A DNA stretch of 64,000 bases from assembly GCA_963744145.1 (NCBI GenBank), contig CAVUSO010000001.1, positions 1,870,831 through 1,934,830 of the forward strand, read 5' to 3'. The notes under the pieces were generated by a model. That model was not told the DNA's origin. It worked only from the letters and a program-made list of their open reading frames with translations, and did not search any database. This document shows positions 5,542 through 45,125 of the stretch, in pieces; position 1 is the stretch's first letter, and every line of letters begins with the position of its first letter. The DNA comes from an uncultured cyanobacterium. Its GTDB lineage: Bacteria > Cyanobacteriota > Cyanobacteriia > Cyanobacteriales > CAWUOF01. Both the position numbers and the translations under genes were made by a program.

Positions 5542-6099
5542 ATGTACTTAACACCAAAACAAGTGTACGAGAAGTATGGGTATCATCCCAAAACACTAGC
5601 AGACTGGGCTGATGAAGGGAAAATTCCTTGCATCAAATCAGCGGGAGGACATCGCAGATATCCTGTATCAGCGCTGGAGAACATAAAATGTGAAGCTAGA
5701 ATTGCTTTTGCTCAAGTAGTGACTTACGCTCGAGTTTCAACTCCATCCCAAAAAGATGACTTGCAGACACAAATCAATTACCTAGTTTCAAGATATCCTA
5801 ACTGCGAATGCGTTAGTGACATTGGTTCAGGACTGAATTTCAAGCGAAAAAAGTTCTTGAAATTGATGCAGAGAATAGCCAATCAAGAAATCCAAACCTT
5901 AGTAGTGGCACATAAAGATAGGTTATGCAGATTTGGCTTTGATTTCGTTGAGTGGTTCTGCAACCTGAACAACTGCGAAATCGTTGTCCTGAACAATAGC
6001 TATCAATCCCCCCAACAAGAGTTTTTGGAAGACTTCATGGCGATTATGCACTGTTTTAGTGCTGGTAGGGGCGTATTGCTATACGCCCGTACTTTTTGA
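5542..6099 (+). CDS. tnpA: IS607-family transposase TnpA (serine recombinase with N-terminal MerR-like HTH)
   Basis: N-terminal HTH (YLTPKQVYEKYGYHPKTLADWADEGKI). Catalytic YARVSTPSQKDDLQTQ with the Ser nucleophile in the resolvase-like domain. Its C-terminal codons are formed by a copy of the 22-28-bp palindrome GGGGCGTATTGC(T/A)ATACGCCC. Confidence 0.75.
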   Translation: MYLTPKQVYEKYGYHPKTLADWADEGKIPCIKSAGGHRRYPVSALENIKCEARIAFAQVVTYARVSTPSQKDDLQTQINYLVSRYPNCECVSDIGSGLNFKRKKFLKLMQRIANQEIQTLVVAHKDRLCRFGFDFVEWFCNLNNCEIVVLNNSYQSPQQEFLEDFMAIMHCFSAGRGVLLYARTF

Positions 6100-6192
6100 G
6101 GAAATACGAAAAACAGATCACTACCGAGGTTGACAAAACGGAGTGAATCGGAGTATAGTAAAATCTAACACCAACATGAACCAGACCTAATT

Positions 6193-7527
6193 GTGTTAAA
6201 GCCCAAGAAAGGATTTTCAATAGCCACTAAATCGGTCAAAGCCAAGCTTGAGCGAACAGGAGTGGATCTACAAGAAAGTAAAGATGCCTACAACGAAGTG
6301 GTGCATTTCTATTTCTTGCTGATTAGAGAAGATCCTAATGGGTTGACGATTCCATTAGTAAATAATGGGGGATGGCGCTACTACGAAATCAAGACAGTAG
6401 AGAACGAGTTTATCAAGGGATTCCCTGCGCCATTGAAAAGAGCCGCAATTCGTCAAGCGATTGGTGCTTACGAATCCTGGTCTAGCAATTACCAAAAATG
6501 GTTGAAACGTCCTCAGAAAATGAAACACCATAAACCACCAGTACAGCCCAGGAAATTTAACTTTAACCCCCAATATGATTCTGGGATGTGGAAGGAAGAT
6601 AATGGTGCTTCTATATTGTTAAAAGTATTGGTAAACGGCGCATGGAAATGGATTAAACATCAATACCAAAGTCCAGAAATTCAGTCAGACTGGGTAAAAT
6701 GTTCTCCCAGAGTTCAGGTGCAGTCTAATTCTTTTTGGTTAGTGTTCCCCATTGAGAAATATGTACCTGCAACCGGAGGAATTAAAAATATCATGTCAAA
6801 ACCGAAGGGGCGTATTGCAATACGCCCCTTCAGAACTTGCGGGATTGATCTGGATTTAGATCAACACATTGCGATCTGCACTGTGCTAGAAACCAACGAC
6901 AGAGGCGAATCGACAGAAGTTGCTAGATTGTTTATTAATCAGTCACGCCATGTAGCTCGTAGGAAGCGGAATCTAGGACAGATTGCCATCAAGATGAGTC
7001 AAACTGGCATTATTTCCAAGGGCTTTGCTAATCATCAATGGCAGAAGTTATCGAAGCGAGAAATGGAGTTTTCCAGGGATGTGTCAAGGCAGATTGTAGA
7101 ATTTGCTAAATATTGGCAAGTCCAAATTATCAGCTTTGAGCATCTAGGTAATTTGCGTCCCCAAAAAGGAAAATACTCCAAACGCTCTAATCAGAAACGT
7201 GCTTATTGGTTAAAGAGTAAAGTTTACGAGCAAGTGAAAAGAATTGCTTTTCAAGACTACGGAATATTGGTGACAAGAGTTAACCCAAAAAATACTAGCA
7301 AACTCAGTCCCAACGGTTTACCTGTTTGGAGAGGTCATCAATTTCCTAGCTCTATATTGGAGTTTTTAGAATATCAATCAGGAGCAAATTTAGTGGCTAC
7401 GCCTGATGGTTACAGAGCTCATTCTGGACTTAATGCCGCTCGCAATATCGCGCTCAAAGCGATTAAGCGTAATTTACCAGAAGTTACACTTAATCTCAAA
7501 AAAAAGCCCAAAGCAGTAATGCTTTAG
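6193..7527 (+). CDS. tnpB: TnpB (OrfB) RNA-guided-endonuclease-family protein, RuvC-like
   Basis: 444 aa. Central GIDLDLDQHIAICTV (RuvC-I Asp); C-terminal zinc-finger region and the RuvC-III-like ...HSGLNAARNIALKA typical of TnpB/Cas12 ancestors. Follows tnpA with an ~90-nt spacer. Confidence 0.75.
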   Translation: MLKPKKGFSIATKSVKAKLERTGVDLQESKDAYNEVVHFYFLLIREDPNGLTIPLVNNGGWRYYEIKTVENEFIKGFPAPLKRAAIRQAIGAYESWSSNYQKWLKRPQKMKHHKPPVQPRKFNFNPQYDSGMWKEDNGASILLKVLVNGAWKWIKHQYQSPEIQSDWVKCSPRVQVQSNSFWLVFPIEKYVPATGGIKNIMSKPKGRIAIRPFRTCGIDLDLDQHIAICTVLETNDRGESTEVARLFINQSRHVARRKRNLGQIAIKMSQTGIISKGFANHQWQKLSKREMEFSRDVSRQIVEFAKYWQVQIISFEHLGNLRPQKGKYSKRSNQKRAYWLKSKVYEQVKRIAFQDYGILVTRVNPKNTSKLSPNGLPVWRGHQFPSSILEFLEYQSGANLVATPDGYRAHSGLNAARNIALKAIKRNLPEVTLNLKKKPKAVML

Positions 7528-8211: not shown

Positions 8212-11200
8212 TTAGCCTTTGTAGTCTGGCATCATACATTTGTCGCTATCGCATCCAGCTGGTCCTTCTACCATTGAATATCCCAGATCGTAGCGGCGCA
8301 AAGCTGTATAAAAGTCATTAATTTTTTGTCTGGCTTTCACTTCTTTTTGTAAACGTTTATAAGTATCCTGATCGATTTTCTCAAAGGGTAGTCTTGGGAA
8401 AGGAGCATTAAAACGCGCAAACAAAGCTGCACTAATATACCCTTCATCATTTTGAATGGTTTGGTAAATACGTTGACCAACTACATCAATTTCTGCTTCA
8501 GTTAATTCGATCGTTGCGCTAGTATTATGGGTGGTATAATAACGTTGCACTTGCATATAGAAATCAAACTGAGCTAAAGCAGAAAACTTTTCAATTTCAA
8601 TCTCATCTGCTCCAGGTAAGTTTGTCCAGCATACTTCGGTGGGAATTTCGACGAGCCAAGCAGAGCAACGTGGATCGAAGGGATCATTCAGTAAGTTACC
8701 ATTTTCATCTTTGTCGTCTTGAGATGGTACAACATTATAACCGTAGTCAATACAGGCTAATGCGACTGGATCGTTTTTTGCAAAAGTAATCCGACGTAGA
8801 AAACGCTGGGATTTGGGAGGGTGCCATCCTGGAGAACCTCCAGTCAGAAGTACCTTAGTACCAGAAGGTTGAACTGTAGTACATCGATTTGGTTTATTCA
8901 GATGGTGCCGATCGCAATAATCCCAAACTACCTGATGGGCGATATTTTGCCAATGACTTAAATACTCTTGTTCACGTCGTTTAAATTCTAATCCTAAAGT
9001 TGTTTCTGGTCGTCCTTCTACCCACCAGCGCAACCATTCTACTCCAAAAGCTTTCACAAAGAAATCAAATAAACCCCCAAAAGATACACCAACGATCGGA
9101 TCAATTTCACGAGATTTTTGAAATCTTGATTCTAAAAATCCTCGTTTTAATAAAGCCGCAACTGATAGAGCCGCAGCGGTAAAAGCATCTTCCTGTTCTT
9201 TCCAGTCATTAGGATCAAGCAAATCGAGGTGAACTTGAGATAGATTACAATGAAAATCCGTGCCAATAATTTCACCACAATTATGAGCGACAAAACCATT
9301 CGCATCAAATCTTGATCCACTTGGTACGGTACAATCGTAAACAGGGGCTTCACCAGCGGGAATAATTGCACTTATTTCAACAGTAAATCTTTCTCTGGTT
9401 AGCTCTCCCTCCTCACTTGCTAATGCTAAGGCTAATTGTTGAGATTTTGTTGATTCTTGAAACCCAATTAATTGCTGAAATACAATAATATTGTCGTTGC
9501 TAATGACTAAATTATGATTTGTTTGAGCTAAGTTAGGTTGACGATCAGACAATTTACTGATCTCTTCATGCTGATAATTTTGGTAAATTGTTGCTGCAAT
9601 TCCTAGACGGAGTAACATTCTCTGAATTGCTGCTAAGTTAGATAAATTGCTTTGAGCTAACTGAATGATGATCTCTTTACTTTCAGTAATATTGATATTA
9701 CCATTAGCATCAAATAAGCTTTTTAAAAAACCTCGATAGAATTCATAACTAGCTTTTTCAACTTCGGGAGTAATTTCTTGAAATCCTGGCTCTAATCCGA
9801 ATTTACTTGCTACTTTTTCCCAACTAACAGTAGATGTTATATGCTGGGTGTCAAGTGCTATAATTCTGTTCTTTTTCCTGAACCCTGACAACTGTTTGGT
9901 ATGGCTCCAGAAATTACCAAGTAACCATCCTTCGGCAAAAGTTCCATTTCCATCCCAAGGTTGGAGAGCGCGGTGATTATGAATTAAAATGCGATCGCCC
10001 GGTTTTAAATCTTGAACTTCACACCATTCTGAACACTGTTGTTTTTGAGTTTGAGCTGTGACTTTTAAGACTTGGTGATTTTCGGTTAGTCTTAAGGTAT
10101 AACCTGGTTTAGTGTGGAGTTGAACAACAGGTTTTACTCCAGTAAAGAAAAAGCCTTTAGCAGTTGTACTAAATAACTCTCCATTGACATAAACACTATG
10201 TTGAATACCAATTAATTCTTTGACTTGTCTAGCTCCATACTCAGTATGAATCCAAGTATCTTCAGTAATACAAGGATTCAGAGCATACCGAGCTAAACGA
10301 TGCTCTATCTCATGATCAGAAAGTTGAGGATTAAGTTGTCGTAACCATTGTTCTGCTTGATCCTGCTCATAAGCTCTCAAGAAATCAGTTTTTAATTCAG
10401 GAGTTTTTAGTAAATCGCGATTTGCTCTAGCTACTGCTTCTCCAGCCCATTGAATTGCTCCTTCACCAGAATAATATTGTTGACGTACAGCTTCAAGACA
10501 TTCATCAAAAGTAGGTTTGTGATGGAAAACACGAGTATGATTACTCATTCTCAGCGCGTCTCTTTGTGGATCAATGCGCCATTTTCCTGATTCATCCTGT
10601 TGCCAAAGGTTAGCTTTTGCGTTAGTAAATAGAGGATCGTTACTATCACCTTGACGCATTCCGGCACTTCTTCTAATATTACCTGCAACTACACAAGCAG
10701 CAGCTTCATCAATTAATAAGCAGCATTCTACCGAATTTAGTTTTCTTCCCACCGCTTGATTCAGTACAGCAACGCAACGCTGATACAATTCTGATAACTT
10801 AATCGGATTAGCAACACCACCAAAACCTTGTAGAACTTCTCCAGCAGGACGTACATCACTTAAGTCAATCGATACATTAATTTCTCCAGCAAATCTTTCA
10901 TCACTAGATAATTCTAATAAAGTTTGATAGGACTTAACCCAACCTTCACGACTATCTCCTACATAGATATATACGTGATGATTGTCAATTTTTACTTCTG
11001 TTGTTTGACGACGTAATTCTGGAATTGTCAGTCCAATCTCACCTGGCATATTGATGGTAAGATGATTACGAATTGGTGGAAGTTGGTTAATATATTTTGG
11101 CTCTAATACAGCCCCAGTTCCACAACCCATCATTGCCAATTCCATCATAATTCCAAAGGATTCCCAGTCAGTAATATCGCGACTGGTACAGTTAAATCCT

Positions 11201-11490
11201 CCAGAGAAGTTTTCGGGTTTCTCAAACCATTTTGTACCACCAATCCAGAGGAAACGGGCACCAACTGTAGTTTTTAGTTGACTTTGCATCCGCTCAATGA
11301 TCTGTGCTTCTTGAGGAGTAAGTTCACCGAGTTGGGTTAATCCTTGTAAGGTGCGATCGCACACTTCTTTCCAGGTTTCTCGTCCCGTTTCTTGACGACG
11401 ACTGTAAGTCCTAAAAAATACTGGATTTGCTGCTGGAGCTGTGGATGGGAATTCCCAATTATTACTGATTCTTTCTAGTTCTCGCACCAT
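8212..11490 (-). CDS. nrdJ: adenosylcobalamin-dependent (class II) ribonucleotide reductase interrupted by an intein
   Basis: The 1092-aa ORF has exteins with class II RNR features, including a cysteine-rich C-terminal tail (GPAGCDSDKCMMPDYKG). The ORF is interrupted by a 331-aa insertion beginning C-I-T-E-D-T-W-I-H-T and ending F-V-A-H-N followed by Cys. These are canonical intein block A and block G splice junctions. Confidence 0.8.
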   Translation of the reverse strand: MVRELERISNNWEFPSTAPAANPVFFRTYSRRQETGRETWKEVCDRTLQGLTQLGELTPQEAQIIERMQSQLKTTVGARFLWIGGTKWFEKPENFSGGFNCTSRDITDWESFGIMMELAMMGCGTGAVLEPKYINQLPPIRNHLTINMPGEIGLTIPELRRQTTEVKIDNHHVYIYVGDSREGWVKSYQTLLELSSDERFAGEINVSIDLSDVRPAGEVLQGFGGVANPIKLSELYQRCVAVLNQAVGRKLNSVECCLLIDEAAACVVAGNIRRSAGMRQGDSNDPLFTNAKANLWQQDESGKWRIDPQRDALRMSNHTRVFHHKPTFDECLEAVRQQYYSGEGAIQWAGEAVARANRDLLKTPELKTDFLRAYEQDQAEQWLRQLNPQLSDHEIEHRLARYALNPCITEDTWIHTEYGARQVKELIGIQHSVYVNGELFSTTAKGFFFTGVKPVVQLHTKPGYTLRLTENHQVLKVTAQTQKQQCSEWCEVQDLKPGDRILIHNHRALQPWDGNGTFAEGWLLGNFWSHTKQLSGFRKKNRIIALDTQHITSTVSWEKVASKFGLEPGFQEITPEVEKASYEFYRGFLKSLFDANGNINITESKEIIIQLAQSNLSNLAAIQRMLLRLGIAATIYQNYQHEEISKLSDRQPNLAQTNHNLVISNDNIIVFQQLIGFQESTKSQQLALALASEEGELTRERFTVEISAIIPAGEAPVYDCTVPSGSRFDANGFVAHNCGEIIGTDFHCNLSQVHLDLLDPNDWKEQEDAFTAAALSVAALLKRGFLESRFQKSREIDPIVGVSFGGLFDFFVKAFGVEWLRWWVEGRPETTLGLEFKRREQEYLSHWQNIAHQVVWDYCDRHHLNKPNRCTTVQPSGTKVLLTGGSPGWHPPKSQRFLRRITFAKNDPVALACIDYGYNVVPSQDDKDENGNLLNDPFDPRCSAWLVEIPTEVCWTNLPGADEIEIEKFSALAQFDFYMQVQRYYTTHNTSATIELTEAEIDVVGQRIYQTIQNDEGYISAALFARFNAPFPRLPFEKIDQDTYKRLQKEVKARQKINDFYTALRRYDLGYSMVEGPAGCDSDKCMMPDYKG
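9280..10272 (-). other. intein (331 aa) with LAGLIDADG-type homing endonuclease domain inside nrdJ
   Basis: Boundaries mapped at codon level: Cys407 codon at 10270-10272 and Asn737 codon at 9280-9282, with the +1 Cys at 9277-9279. Internal motifs GWLLGNFWSH and GFLKSLFDANGNIN resemble the two LAGLIDADG blocks. Confidence 0.75.
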
Positions 11491-11892
11491 AATCTATCCT
11501 GTGATGGCATATATAGCGTTTACAAGGTCGCGGACGTTTGATTGTAACACTATAACTAGATATTTGGCAAAACCAGATCCAAAACTGATCGATTGACCCG
11601 TTCCTGATTAGACTCACCAGGTTGGGGCAATCGACTCATGGACGATTGCTAGGGTGAATTGAGCAAGCGATTACATAAGTTACACTACATGAATGCAATT
11701 AGAATGAGAATTAGTGGAGCTCTTCAGTAAATGGGGTGGTGAGAAAGATGAGGGAGCATCCCACTTTTTGACTAAGTAGAAATACTTAGAGCCAAATCAC
11801 CATTCAAGTAAGCACACCTTAGTTTCAACATTTGAGAGACATTTTTTTGTTCCCATTGTGAGCCAGTAATTTTCATCCTCAACCCAATCTGT

Positions 11893-12572
11893 TTAATCAA
11901 AGACTCTACTCCCCCCTACCCAGGTGCAAATTCCTAATTCTTGATATAATTGATAATCTGGTATCCTTGATTGGTGTTTGTTGAGATAATTCTGGAAATT
12001 CCGAGTCTGTTTATTGTCTAATCCGGCAAATTCCTCTTCAGCTTCTTTTACTAATCCTTGCGTAGGGGCGTATTGCAATACGCCCCTACTTGACTTTTTT
12101 TAATCTTTTACTTGACACCTCGACTTTATATAAATTTTCGGTTAAATGATACCAATCCAAAATTTTTCTTCTTTGAGCAGAACTACCAATCTGATTAATT
12201 ATCTTCCAAACTCCATCATGACCATCGTCTAAACGTAGGGGCGTATTGCAATACGCCCGTACTAATATATTACTCAAAGGTTGTTGATTTACCCAAGCGA
12301 TTAATTTTTCATCTTGTTGAAATAATGCTCCTCCTACCCGGTCATGAATCTTGATTGCAATATAATTGTTTCCATTCACTTTTTTCTCCTAATGGTGTTC
12401 TAATTCTGACACTTCCTCCATCTACACTTAATGCTTCTGCTCTTTTAGTGATTTCGGTTAATTCTACTTGATGATTTAATCCTAAACGATGTTGTGTGCT
12501 ATGGGTAGGGGCGCAAGAGCAATACGCCCCTACGATACCTGTTAAAAGTTCCAAATCTCTTTCTACATTCAT
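11893..12572 (-). pseudogene. degraded transposase gene in three ORF fragments, interrupted by palindromic repeat copies
   Basis: Three short consecutive minus-strand ORFs (76, 97 and 61 aa). C-terminal-like transposase motifs are ILDWYHLTENLYKV and RIPDYQLYQELGICTWVGGS. Three copies of GTAGGGGCGTATTGCAATACGCCCCTAC or variants lie at 12065-12086, 12237-12258 and 12507-12530, at or within the fragment boundaries. Confidence 0.5.
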
Positions 12573-13015
12573 AAATGATTCTAAAGCTGATTAAGATTAA
12601 AGAACATTTTCCTAAGATTGGACTTAAACGAGTTTTTTTCTTTAATTTCAGTCTTTCCGCTTGTGAGAGTTGATAATGAGATTTCCCCTACACAACTTTT
12701 AATCGTTCTTAAAGTCACTAAATTCCTCAGTTGGTGTATATTTATATAGAATCGCGGCTACTGCTGCTAAATTTTTTTCAATAATCATTTGTTCTTCTGG
12801 TGTCATTTGTTCTTTCGGTGTGATTTTTTGGTGTCAATTAATTGCTTGTTGTACTTTTCTATTGTCCTGGATTTAATTTTTCATTACAATAAGTATTTTT
12901 ATTTATTGCAGAAGTGGATGCTCCCAGACCTGGGTGACCACGCTCTTTTTGTTCACCCTGATATAAATCAACAATATTGGCATCAATCCGCAATTTACCT
13001 AGGTAATGAAAATTG

Positions 13016-13795: not shown

Positions 13796-15151
13796 ATGAA
13801 AATTCAGCAAATATCCGTTATGGGTTTATTCGGAATTTTTGACCATGTAATTCCATTGAATATGGATGAGAGAATCACGATTATTCATGGCCCAAATGGT
13901 TTTGGAAAAACAGCAATATTGAGAATGGTGAATGGATTCTTCAACTCTCGATACTCAGTGTTTCGCACTATCCCATTTAGCAAATTTCGAGTTGAGTTTG
14001 ATAATGATAGTTTTGTTGAGGTGATAAAAACTTCTGACAGTTTGGAGAAAACGAAGAAAATAGAGGATATAACTCTTTACTTTCACAGCACTAATGAAAA
14101 AGAAGATCCTTTTGTTTTGAAAGGATCAAATAACCCTTCAGATATTGGCATTCCAGTAGATATTTTGGATGACATAATACCTGAACTTCGCCGAGTAGGG
14201 TCTAAAAATTGGCGGTATATTCCGACTGGTGAAATCCTTTCTTTAATCGAAGTTATAGATCGATTTGAAGACTTTTTGCCTACAAAAACAAAATTGCGAG
14301 AAGAACCTGAGTGGTTAGAAAAATTAAAGCATGATATTAATGTTCGCTTGATAGAATCGCAGCGTTTACTAAACGTTGATTCTAGCTATTCTTCAAGAGA
14401 ATATGCTAGGAAAAATTCAATGTTACCAACTGTTTCTGCCTATTCTAAAGAGCTTGCACAATATATTGAATCTAAACTTGCTGAATATGGTACAACTTCC
14501 CAAGCACTCGATCGCACATTTCCTGCGAGGGTAGTAAAACAACAGCTATCTCCTGATTTAACAGAAGAAAAACTTCGTCATCAGCTAAATCAGCTTGAAG
14601 AAACTCGCTCTCGTCTGATCGAGGTAGGTTTATTAGATAAGGATGAAAATTCAGACTTTCAAATTCAGTCTCAATCAATAGATGAAAGCACCAAAAATAT
14701 CTTATCAGTGTATGTTGATGATGTAGAAAAGAAGCTAAACGTTTTCAGTGAAATTGCCAGCAAGATTGATCTGTTAAGAAGAATTATTAATATTAAATTT
14801 GCTTATTCCTACAAAGAAATGAATTTCAACAAGGAAAAAGGGTTTGTTTTTAAGACAAGTTATAACACTTCTTCTAATACAGATACTATTTCTCCAACAG
14901 ATTTATCATCTGGCGAGCAACATGAGTTAATTCTTCTCTACGAACTACTATTTAAAGTTCAACCTAATTCTCTCGTCTTGATTGATGAACCTGAATTATC
15001 GCTTCATGTAGGATGGCAAAAGCAGTTTCTAAAAGACTTGCAAGAAATCATAAAACTTGCAGATTTAGATATTCTAATGGCTACTCACTCACCAGACATC
15101 ATTCAAGATCGCTGGGATTTAACTGTAGGTCTGAAAGGGATAGAAAAATGA
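13796..15151 (+). CDS. ABC-type (SMC/OLD-like) ATPase, AriA-like component of a PARIS or split-OLD-type defence pair
   Basis: Walker A HGPNGFGKTAIL. ABC signature-like LSSGEQHEL, Walker B SLVLIDEPELSLH and H-loop MATHSPD at the C-terminus, with a long coiled-coil-like insertion between. The stop overlaps the next gene's start (ATGA at 15148-15151). Confidence 0.65.
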   Translation: MKIQQISVMGLFGIFDHVIPLNMDERITIIHGPNGFGKTAILRMVNGFFNSRYSVFRTIPFSKFRVEFDNDSFVEVIKTSDSLEKTKKIEDITLYFHSTNEKEDPFVLKGSNNPSDIGIPVDILDDIIPELRRVGSKNWRYIPTGEILSLIEVIDRFEDFLPTKTKLREEPEWLEKLKHDINVRLIESQRLLNVDSSYSSREYARKNSMLPTVSAYSKELAQYIESKLAEYGTTSQALDRTFPARVVKQQLSPDLTEEKLRHQLNQLEETRSRLIEVGLLDKDENSDFQIQSQSIDESTKNILSVYVDDVEKKLNVFSEIASKIDLLRRIINIKFAYSYKEMNFNKEKGFVFKTSYNTSSNTDTISPTDLSSGEQHELILLYELLFKVQPNSLVLIDEPELSLHVGWQKQFLKDLQEIIKLADLDILMATHSPDIIQDRWDLTVGLKGIEK

Positions 15152-22152: not shown

Positions 22153-22226
22153 ATACCTTTGTAGGGGTGCAAGAGCTTTTGCGCCCCTACTGATCAAATT
22201 ATTATGATGTTGAGGTAACTCCTAAG

Positions 22227-27777: not shown

Positions 27778-27828
27778 AAAATAGGGCGTTGCTGATTTAC
27801 AGTATAAAGAAATAATCTGTAGGGGCGT

Positions 27829-27856
27829 ATTGCAATACGCCCCTACGAATAAAAAT
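27829..27856 (+). repeat. 28-bp perfect palindrome GTAGGGGCGTATTGCAATACGCCCCTAC (dispersed family; other copies at 6067-6088, 6807-6828, 12065-12086, 12237-12258, 12507-12530 variant, 22161-22190 variant)
   Basis: Read directly from the sequence. Seven copies within 64 kb. Confidence 0.85.
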
Positions 27857-45024: not shown

Positions 45025-45125
45025 AATCCCCCTTAAAAAGGGGGACTTTAAATTCATGCTCCCCCTTAAAAAGGGGGACTTTAAATTCATGCTCCCCCTT
45101 TTTAAGGGGGTTGGGGGGATCAATT
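45025..45125 (+). repeat. tandem 33-bp repeat containing CCCCCTTAAAAAGGGGG hairpins (two full units plus an inverted partial unit)
   Basis: cccccttaaaaagggggactttaaattcatgct occurs twice consecutively, followed by ccccctttttaaggggg. It lies upstream of the phytochrome gene. A (TTTA)n microsatellite is at 45250-45278. Confidence 0.7.

Follow-up and report, generated by a model that had tools for sequence, protein, structure and literature searches.

A palindromic 28-mer in two insertion sequences of a cyanobacterial contig, its probable identity as a double-foot REP and its presence in genomes of many phyla

Double-foot REPs and other short hairpin repeats

Canonical REPs, as known from E. coli, Pseudomonas and Stenotrophomonas (REP, BIME and REPIN-RAYT systems), occur dispersed, mostly outside genes, and are served by a Y1 HUH enzyme, which picks its sites between C and T via GTAG pairing, and usually one RAYT gene is present per REP family (PMC2817692, PMC3116915, PMC3479197, PMC8266576). 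According to Corneloup et al. 2021 (PMC8266576), TnpA_REP cleaves between C and T (or C and A) at a site chosen by pairing with the GTAG guide. Another group of these enzymes was described by Quentin et al. 2018 (PMC6006769) as TnpA_Y1 subclass 2.4, equivalent to Bertels group 4, with the signatures NH[IFV]H, WQ and YIxNNP and with hosts among Cyanobacteria, Bacteroidetes and scattered phyla. The REPs of this subclass are either "canonical long" or "double foot", i.e. with a 5' GT[AG]G and a 3' C[TC]AC, and in-frame REPs inside tnpAREP, between the HUH motif and the Tyr, are unique to it. The supplement of the same paper includes 28-mers such as GTAGGGGCGAAAAATTTTTCGCCCCTAC plus a GAAG...CTTC variant, and a single double-foot unit was proposed to derive possibly from central deletion of a REP doublet. 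The biochemistry that we found in the literature concerned RAYT groups 2 and 3, and none was found on enzymes of subclass 2.4.

The element analysed here is the palindromic 28-mer GTAGGGGCGTATTGCAATACGCCCCTAC, which occurs in seven copies or variants in 64 kb of DNA from a cyanobacterial contig (the window, i.e. the whole stretch analysed). It is very probably a double-foot REP of RAYT/TnpA_REP subclass 2.4 (Bertels group 4). It was inserted secondarily into two decaying insertion sequences, where it is probably tolerated, not targeted. It has every sequence feature of a double-foot REP: it shares with those of subclass 2.4 the feet, the three G-C base pairs, the perfect palindrome of 28 nt, the in-frame RAYT copies, the RAYT motifs and the patchy distribution over many phyla. 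It differs in that its inner sequence TATTGCAATA is absent from the table of Quentin et al. (PMC6006769), and in that the window copies reside in the genes of other transposons, with no RAYT in the window. We regard it as an unremarkable representative of a class already described, and the additions made here are modest, namely the identity of the 28-mer across phyla and the junctions of filled and empty sites.

Other described systems resemble it in part. The GTAG guide at the foot is common to the element and the canonical REPs cited above. However, the latter have one foot, often a bulged stem, are usually arranged in inverted doublets and are largely species- or genus-specific, whereas the window element is single, fully symmetric and identical across phyla. 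Di Nocera et al. 2013 (PMC3733652) described GTAG-12/15/16 stem-loop REPs of Anabaena, Nostoc and Cyanothece, and also reported intragenic REPs and REPs embedded in longer palindromes; by their description, a difference is that the GTAG tag is unpaired and at one end. As for the subterminal hairpins of IS200/IS605, these also combine a hairpin with a 5' guide tetranucleotide that picks the cleavage and target sites, operate on single-stranded DNA and leave no target duplication, but they flank the transposase gene and the whole IS moves, while here a lone hairpin is dispersed. The SDRs of Nostoc punctiforme, attributed to Elhai et al. 2008, are reportedly units of 21-27 nt that form hairpins and occur nested within other repeats and minitransposons, and are said to be confined to one cyanobacterial subgroup and to have no associated enzyme; they are similarly small hairpin-forming units, in contrast to which the present element is found in about 20 phyla and is associated with RAYTs. 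Finally, a physical association of REPs and IS is also known from REP-targeting IS (e.g. ISPpu9, PMC8450116), but there the IS enters the REP, whereas here intact REPs lie in IS genes.

Hairpins of the window and their insertion sites

When the window was scanned for GTAGGGGCGTATTGCAATACGCCCCTAC with up to 3 mismatches, two perfect copies (0 mismatches; 12062 and 27819), one copy with 1 mismatch (12235) and two copies with 2 mismatches (6065 and 6804) were detected (Table 1). Zero matches were obtained with the same scan in 100 dinucleotide-preserving shuffles, and no copies are expected in the window by chance. Two more hairpins are loop variants, in which the outer GTAGGGG...CCCCTAC is kept and the inside is different (GTAGGGGCGCAAGAGCAATACGCCCCTAC at 12505 and GTAGGGGTGCAAGAGCTTTTGCGCCCCTAC at 22161). 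An earlier note on this DNA had correctly counted seven palindromes or close variants and had placed them in IS607-type tnpA and tnpB genes, in a fragmented transposase and in two intergenic sites; its sites were right, while its positions were 2-3 nt off (10 nt for the copy given as 27829), which is immaterial.

Folded as single-stranded DNA, each of the seven copies gives a hairpin with a free energy of -10.4 to -13.9 kcal/mol (z = -4.0 to -6.6 versus shuffled sequences) and three G-C pairs at the base of the stem (GGG/CCC right after the foot). Canonical GTAG...CTAC feet are present in the 12062 and 27819 copies and in both loop variants. The feet of the other three are altered: GAAG/CTTC in the 6804 copy, and GTAC at the 3' end of the 6065 and 12235 copies. 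The unit is a single perfect palindrome, and a REPIN (REP doublet) was rejected, as no half-sites paired at a distance were present in the window. Likewise, palindrome halves flanking a cargo (the "four-helix-bundle / 23S IVS" genes) were considered, and no distant lone half-sites of such a pattern were seen. An Rfam search of the whole window returned zero families at gathering score.

The GC content of the window is 38.7%, and the HIP1 octamer GCGATCGC is present 54 times against about one expected, which confirms the cyanobacterial origin of the window. The palindrome differs in sequence from HIP1, which occurs separately from it, so that the suggestion of a HIP-like element was abandoned. 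A second REP family, canonical and single-foot (GT[AG]G-GACAGGCA-TCT-TGCCTGTC), is also represented by nine copies in the window, eight of them with the foot. All nine lie outside ORFs of at least 90 aa, and two inverted REPIN-like pairs with feet inward are formed (51230/51274 and 55577/55621). This indicates that the source genome hosts REP systems. In addition, a 19-nt palindrome, TCCCCCTTAAAAAGGGGGA, occurs twice at 45027-45100, with the copies 33 nt apart and followed by a third, partial copy, and may constitute a short tandem array. Two genes of the window were observed besides: a full-length homologue of Major Vault Protein of 877 aa (30684-33317, plus strand; Pfam matches Vault repeats 2.6e-63, Vault_2/3/4 and MVP_shoulder 2.5e-52), and a B12-dependent (class II) ribonucleotide reductase (8212-11490, minus strand), into which an intein carrying a LAGLIDADG endonuclease domain is inserted.

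Table 1. Hairpin copies, their host insertion sequences and a second REP family in the 64-kb window
Feature	Position	Strand	Remarks
IS607-type element, host of two REPs	5542..7527	+	tnpA 5542-6099, truncated by REP; tnpB 6193-7527
REP copy GTAGGGGCGTATTGCTATACGCCCGTAC	6065..6092		3' end of IS607-type tnpA; 2 mismatches; -11 kcal/mol
REP copy, GAAG/CTTC feet	6804..6831		in frame inside tnpB; +7 aa GRIAIRP; 2 mismatches
ISKra4-family transposase pseudogene, three REPs inside	11700..12806	-	three-frame reading; blastn
Perfect REP copy	12062..12089		ISKra4 pseudogene; absent from L124; net +16 nt, ~13 native nt replaced
REP copy, one GTAC foot	12235..12262		1 mismatch; absent from L124; net +24 nt, 4 native nt replaced
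29-nt REP variant	12505..12533		ISKra4 pseudogene; absent from L124; net +21 nt, ~9 native nt overwritten
30-nt double-foot REP, second subfamily, GTAGGGGTGCAAGAGCTTTTGCGCCCCTAC	22161..22190		intergenic; -11.9 kcal/mol
Perfect REP copy	27819..27846		intergenic; 42 nt after argJ, 50 nt before PHP-domain gene
Second REP family, nine copies	33425, 33489, 51230, 51274, 51314, 55577, 55621, 58334, 58461		window

The IS607-type element encodes a serine recombinase TnpA (Pfam Resolvase and HTH_17/MerR) and a TnpB (Pfam Cas12f1-like_TNB, a weak match; its TnpB homologues carry PF27142). At the tnpA site, three orthologues have AGTGC(C/A)AAGCT(G/C)TA(C/T), i.e. S-A-K-L-Y, without the palindrome, and encode S-A-K-L-Y-F-L-R-K-Y across it. 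The 6065 copy represents a net gain of 20 nt, with GGTAG in place of AAGCT and with a right foot GTAC that contains a native G. It shifts the frame of tnpA, with the stop of TnpA three codons further on; about 17 conserved C-terminal residues are lost, and the tail (YFLRKYEKQITTEV...) is still readable in another frame. The copy in tnpB is in frame, and its translation agrees with the KGRIAIRPF given for it earlier. In ten TnpB orthologues (70-85% identity) PK is directly followed by FRTCG, while the window protein has PK-GRIAIRP-FRTCG; the insert ends four residues upstream of a conserved GID motif, which we take to be the RuvC-I region. In the DNA of two tnpB orthologues, CCnAAG directly precedes TTTAGA; in the window, exactly 21 nt (GGGCGTATTGCAATACGCCCC) are added at this point. 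From this, it follows that the outer foot bases GAAG/CTTC of the 6804 copy are native, and with native feet the frame that would normally hold TAG stays open. Among 120 clusters of TnpB homologues, a REP-type peptide was found in the window's own protein only. The exact TnpB of the window (P0001) forms a one-member cluster on one contig, which indicates that the REP-bearing IS has not multiplied. Of its homologues with a named source, the closest belongs to Floridanema aerugineum (84% identity).

Three-frame reading of the ISKra4-family remnant revealed several frameshifts and stops, and its blastn matches were annotated ISKra4 transposases. As an empty-site reference we used the orthologue L124, whose mean column identity with it is 82% over the whole alignment with gaps counted. 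Compared with L124, the remnant has, besides the REPs, a 103-nt deletion near its 5' end and single-base frameshifts. The change of frame between ...RLKKVK and QGLVKEAEEEF is due to the 12062 copy, and hairpins of the double-foot type explain frameshifts in such IS pseudogenes. The 12235 copy is read in frame as VRAYCNTPL. The 12505 copy folds into a 9-bp stem with an 11-nt loop; it appears to be a hybrid, whose left arm, GTAGGGGCGCAAGAGC, agrees with the subfamily of the 22161 copy and right arm, AATACGCCCCTAC, with the main family, which suggests recombination or overwriting between REP subfamilies. A REP peptide was found, as a doubtful match, in one of 120 ISKra4 clusters. Genes for AAA_15/AAA_21 (AbiEii-like) ATPases and a DUF3226 gene are located at 13796-15151 and nearby; these neighbours of the ISKra4 remnant may have a role in defence.

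The comparison with palindrome-free orthologous transposases, which the earlier note had put forward as a check, could be made at all five IS sites, and such orthologues, with 79-88% identity, exist for each; the alignments show that all five IS-borne copies are secondary insertions, in accordance with the suggestion of a small palindromic mobile element. That the palindrome is instead a conserved coding feature of transposases is practically out of the question: three copies are indeed read through in frame, but orthologues with 70-88% identity lack the residues at every one of the five sites, which refutes it. In the comparison of filled and empty sites, the net gains were 16-24 nt, 4-13 native bases were overwritten and no target-site duplication was seen at the five IS sites. 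The flanking GTA/TAC, once considered a possible target-site duplication, is part of the GTAG/CTAC feet that belong to the element itself and are 85-95% conserved in 124 copies whose surroundings are unrelated. A MITE, for which we would expect terminal inverted repeats of a parent IS, a target-site duplication and usually more than 70 bp, does not fit a unit of 28 bp with unrelated flanks, no target duplication and net gains of 16-24 nt. In the five pairs of filled and empty sites, less DNA was gained than the repeat contains, and part of the target was overwritten; these junctions constrain models of REP spread.

The 28-mer and RAYT genes in other genomes

When 185,579 species genomes were searched for the 20-nt core of the element, at least 115 stretches matched. 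The matches listed came from about 80 assemblies (counted by accession prefix) of about 20 phyla, including Cyanobacteria, Planctomycetota (anammox bacteria among them), Omnitrophota, Atribacterota, Patescibacteria, Chloroflexota, Nitrospirota and Bacteroidota, as well as Ignavibacteria, Zixibacteria, Sumerlaeota, Desulfobacterota, Bacillota, Acidobacteriota and Deinococcota, and the GC content of their loci ranged from 31 to 73%. The literature usually presents REPs as peculiar to one species or one RAYT, whereas here one exact 28-mer recurs in many phyla. No match was found among PLSDB plasmids in near or distant mode, and 9 matches to the palindrome were found in 2.9 million viral contigs, which gives no hint of a phage as vector. 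A literature search with the exact 28-mer and the three peptides GVLQYAPT, GAYCNTPL and GRIAIRP(Y/F) gave no relevant paper.

In the 124 copies listed, the GTAG/CTAC feet are 85-95% conserved per position on both sides of the core (5' foot: G 111, T 113, A 115, G 105; 3' foot: C 104, T 115, A 118, C 117), and conservation drops to background just outside them, from which it can be concluded that the unit is the full GTAG...CTAC 28-mer. The flanks of the listed copies are unrelated to each other, with a T-rich lean upstream and an A-rich one downstream. The palindrome extends into the flanks by at least 1 bp in 19 of 75 copies, about as expected by chance, and by at least 3 bp in 6 of 75, a small excess. 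Related 28-mers are present in the loci, with constant GTAGGGGC/GCCCCTAC and with inner 12 nt that vary yet remain palindromic, which demonstrates selection on the hairpin. A superfamily of 28-29-nt double-foot REPs could be recognized in the loci (L007-L113), sharing the constant GTAGGGGC/GCCCCTAC and differing in their palindromic inner part (e.g. ...GTATGGCCATAC..., ...AATTCATGAATT... and ...GAAAAATTTTTC...); several of these types may coexist in a genome.

In two cyanobacterial MAGs (L021:4100-4200, L023, L044, L046 and L075), the 28-mer constitutes the centre of a composite repeat of about 110 nt with terminal inverted repeats GACATCTCCrGAAA...TTTCTGGAGATGTC. A search for copies of this composite repeat that lack the REP, which would represent an exact empty site, found none. 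Together with the cyanobacterial origin of the window and its 54 HIP1 sites, this nesting would be in line with a lineage-specific cyanobacterial short repeat or MITE (Nezha-, SDR- or HIP-like) unrelated to RAYTs. We nevertheless regard such a repeat as highly improbable, since the identical 28-mer, among the matches listed, comes from about 80 genomes and about 20 phyla, has neither a target duplication nor terminal repeats of its own, and sits inside RAYT genes; the spread over about 20 phyla also rules out an SDR.

To find genes that accompany the palindrome, we took the ORFs (80 aa or longer) of the 115 loci listed and clustered them all against all. One family recurred at or beside the palindrome, and this was Pfam Y1_Tnp (PF01797; Y1/HUH, IS200-like, RAYT/TnpA_REP), with members of about 190-240 aa and the motifs MPNH[IL]H, WQRNYYEHIIR and YIxNNP. 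In five loci (L001, L014, L080, L092 and L093) the 28-mer lies inside the RAYT ORF, in frame and just past the HUH motif (RGVLQYAPT); these five and L110 are the loci where a RAYT is flanked by or contains the REP. In other genomes, the association of the element with RAYTs was therefore observed directly. A database search with the cyanobacterial RAYT of L110 gave more than 7,700 homologues, some of them named "REP element-mobilizing transposase RayT" by JGI. Among the best 120 RAYT clusters, 48 contained exact GVLQYAPT, mostly 7-19 aa past the HUH motif, and 82 contained some REP-like peptide, e.g. RGTARCAPT or VGATGRSPL. The mutual identity of the 48 GVLQYAPT-bearing RAYTs was 39-96% (median 59%); conservation of the protein is far below that of the DNA hairpin it hosts. 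In the 64-kb window, no RAYT gene was found either by tblastn or with an HMM of 120 RAYTs, and the cognate RAYT is presumably encoded elsewhere in the source genome.

Mode of spread and presence in transposon genes

A model of the spread of the element can be drawn by analogy with REP/RAYT and IS200/IS605 systems. During a single-stranded stage of DNA the hairpin would form, and a Y1 HUH enzyme, the product of a gene elsewhere in the genome, would bind the stem-loop and the GTAG. As the element is symmetric, the guide foot GTAG would be available at the 5' end on both strands (CTAC at 3'). Cleavage would occur at a CT dinucleotide picked by guide pairing, on each strand between CCCC and TAC at the 3' foot, and subsequent strand transfer would spread copies in small numbers. 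The earlier proposal that the palindrome is the target of a nicking enzyme is supported by this class membership, by analogy with which the element would be a substrate of a nicking and strand-transfer enzyme. According to the model, copies would persist only at sites of low harm, i.e. in short intergenic spacers (22161 and 27819), in surface loops of proteins if the net insert is divisible by three (tnpB, +21 nt), and in DNA free of selection (the ISKra4 pseudogene).

The gains of 16-24 nt, the overwritten bases and the lack of duplication are a poor fit to clean HUH cut-and-paste of a 28-nt unit. The partly native feet and the net gains suggest that junctions lie inside the feet, and new copies may arise by copy-in or replacement joined within the feet instead of clean cut-and-paste, which would fit the gains, the 4-13 overwritten bases and the mixed native and element feet. 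Later decay may account for some of the base loss in the ISKra4 pseudogene. Furthermore, a RAYT with its own in-frame REP may act as a self-contained seed, whose master hairpin is carried along in horizontal transfer; this would explain how about 80 genomes from about 20 phyla come to share one exact 28-mer, although the RAYTs that host it have a mutual identity of only about 59%. The joint reading, transfer of seed RAYTs combined with copy-in or replacement inside the feet, is put forward tentatively, as a possibility that we rather doubt than expect to hold as a whole.

Both intergenic copies are located in short spacers 3' of co-directional genes, the 22161 copy 9 nt past the stop of a radical-SAM gene, with 37 nt between it and the next one. 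This position, 9 and 42 nt past stops, together with reports that REPs stabilise mRNA and bind gyrase and IHF (PMC6006769), could speak for an RNA or DNA structure selected by the host (3'-end mRNA stabiliser, terminator or protein-binding site), with mobility being incidental. As a general explanation this is unlikely, because no T-run follows the hairpin, no Rfam match was found and the five IS-borne copies are left unexplained; for the two intergenic copies it can coexist with the explanation by a mobile double-foot REP. An intrinsic terminator in particular was rejected, positions +5 to +9 past the element being A-rich without a T-run.

Finally, we examined whether the REPs favour transposon genes. 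Of the seven copies per 64 kb, five are in IS-derived ORFs; the IS-derived DNA amounts to about 3.1 kb, or about 5% of the window, which under a uniform model gives p ~5e-6 by our own arithmetic. ORFs of at least 90 aa make up 78.8% of the window, and if the tolerant space is taken as non-ORF plus IS DNA, p is ~0.004 by the same arithmetic, so that the number of copies in IS DNA exceeds a simple tolerance model if copies are independent. However, they are not, because REPs cluster, and when counted as four clusters (IS607, ISKra4 and two intergenic), two of four are in IS DNA (p ~0.17), which is unremarkable.

It could be proposed that the REP/RAYT system, or the host through it, actively inserts hairpins into mobile elements and disables them. 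The local excess, the truncation of the recombinase by the tnpA copy and the end of the tnpB insert just ahead of the GID motif would all agree with this. Such targeting is nonetheless quite improbable: besides the clustering known for REPs, the ISKra4 copy is damaged independently (the 103-nt deletion and frameshifts), and the REP peptide was absent from the other TnpB clusters of 120 and doubtful in the one ISKra4 cluster of 120 that matched, although many of the clusters are cyanobacterial. The same clusters leave the idea of a host silencing signature, raised in the earlier note, with no supporting evidence.

As for other genomes, only 39% of 128 listed copies were spanned by an ORF (stop to stop, at least 150 aa), compared with 79% of random positions. 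Among the 32 ORFs with an internal copy in the matches listed, RAYT (four members) was the sole transposase family, and no DDE transposase or TnpB was present; as the compared genomes are mostly MAGs, which under-represent repeated IS copies, this test is indicative, not final. Other hosts were single instances, such as PFK, a chorismate-binding (PabB-like) protein, CbiD, Lgt, TilS, a Mur ligase, ProRS, an Eco57I-type enzyme, TonB, radical SAM and others. Elsewhere the element is mostly intergenic and its in-frame hosts are mostly housekeeping enzymes, and the preference for mobile-element ORFs which the earlier note had supposed found no support: enrichment in transposon genes is unsupported beyond the window. 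We infer that two decaying IS copies (with a broken tnpA and an ISKra4 pseudogene, respectively) tolerate the insertions, and that this, combined with the clustering of REPs, best accounts for the local excess.

In-frame 28-mers were also observed in housekeeping and restriction-modification genes of other phyla, whose products are ProRS (L076:768), TilS (L073:371), a PabB-like protein (L070:4685), CbiD (L088:4114) and an Eco57I-type enzyme (L065:5797), and the peptide added was GAYCNTPL or GVLQYAPT. For annotation, GVLQYAPT, GAYCNTPL or GRIAIRP(Y/F) in predicted proteins can be taken as a mark of an inserted REP, and not of a real domain.
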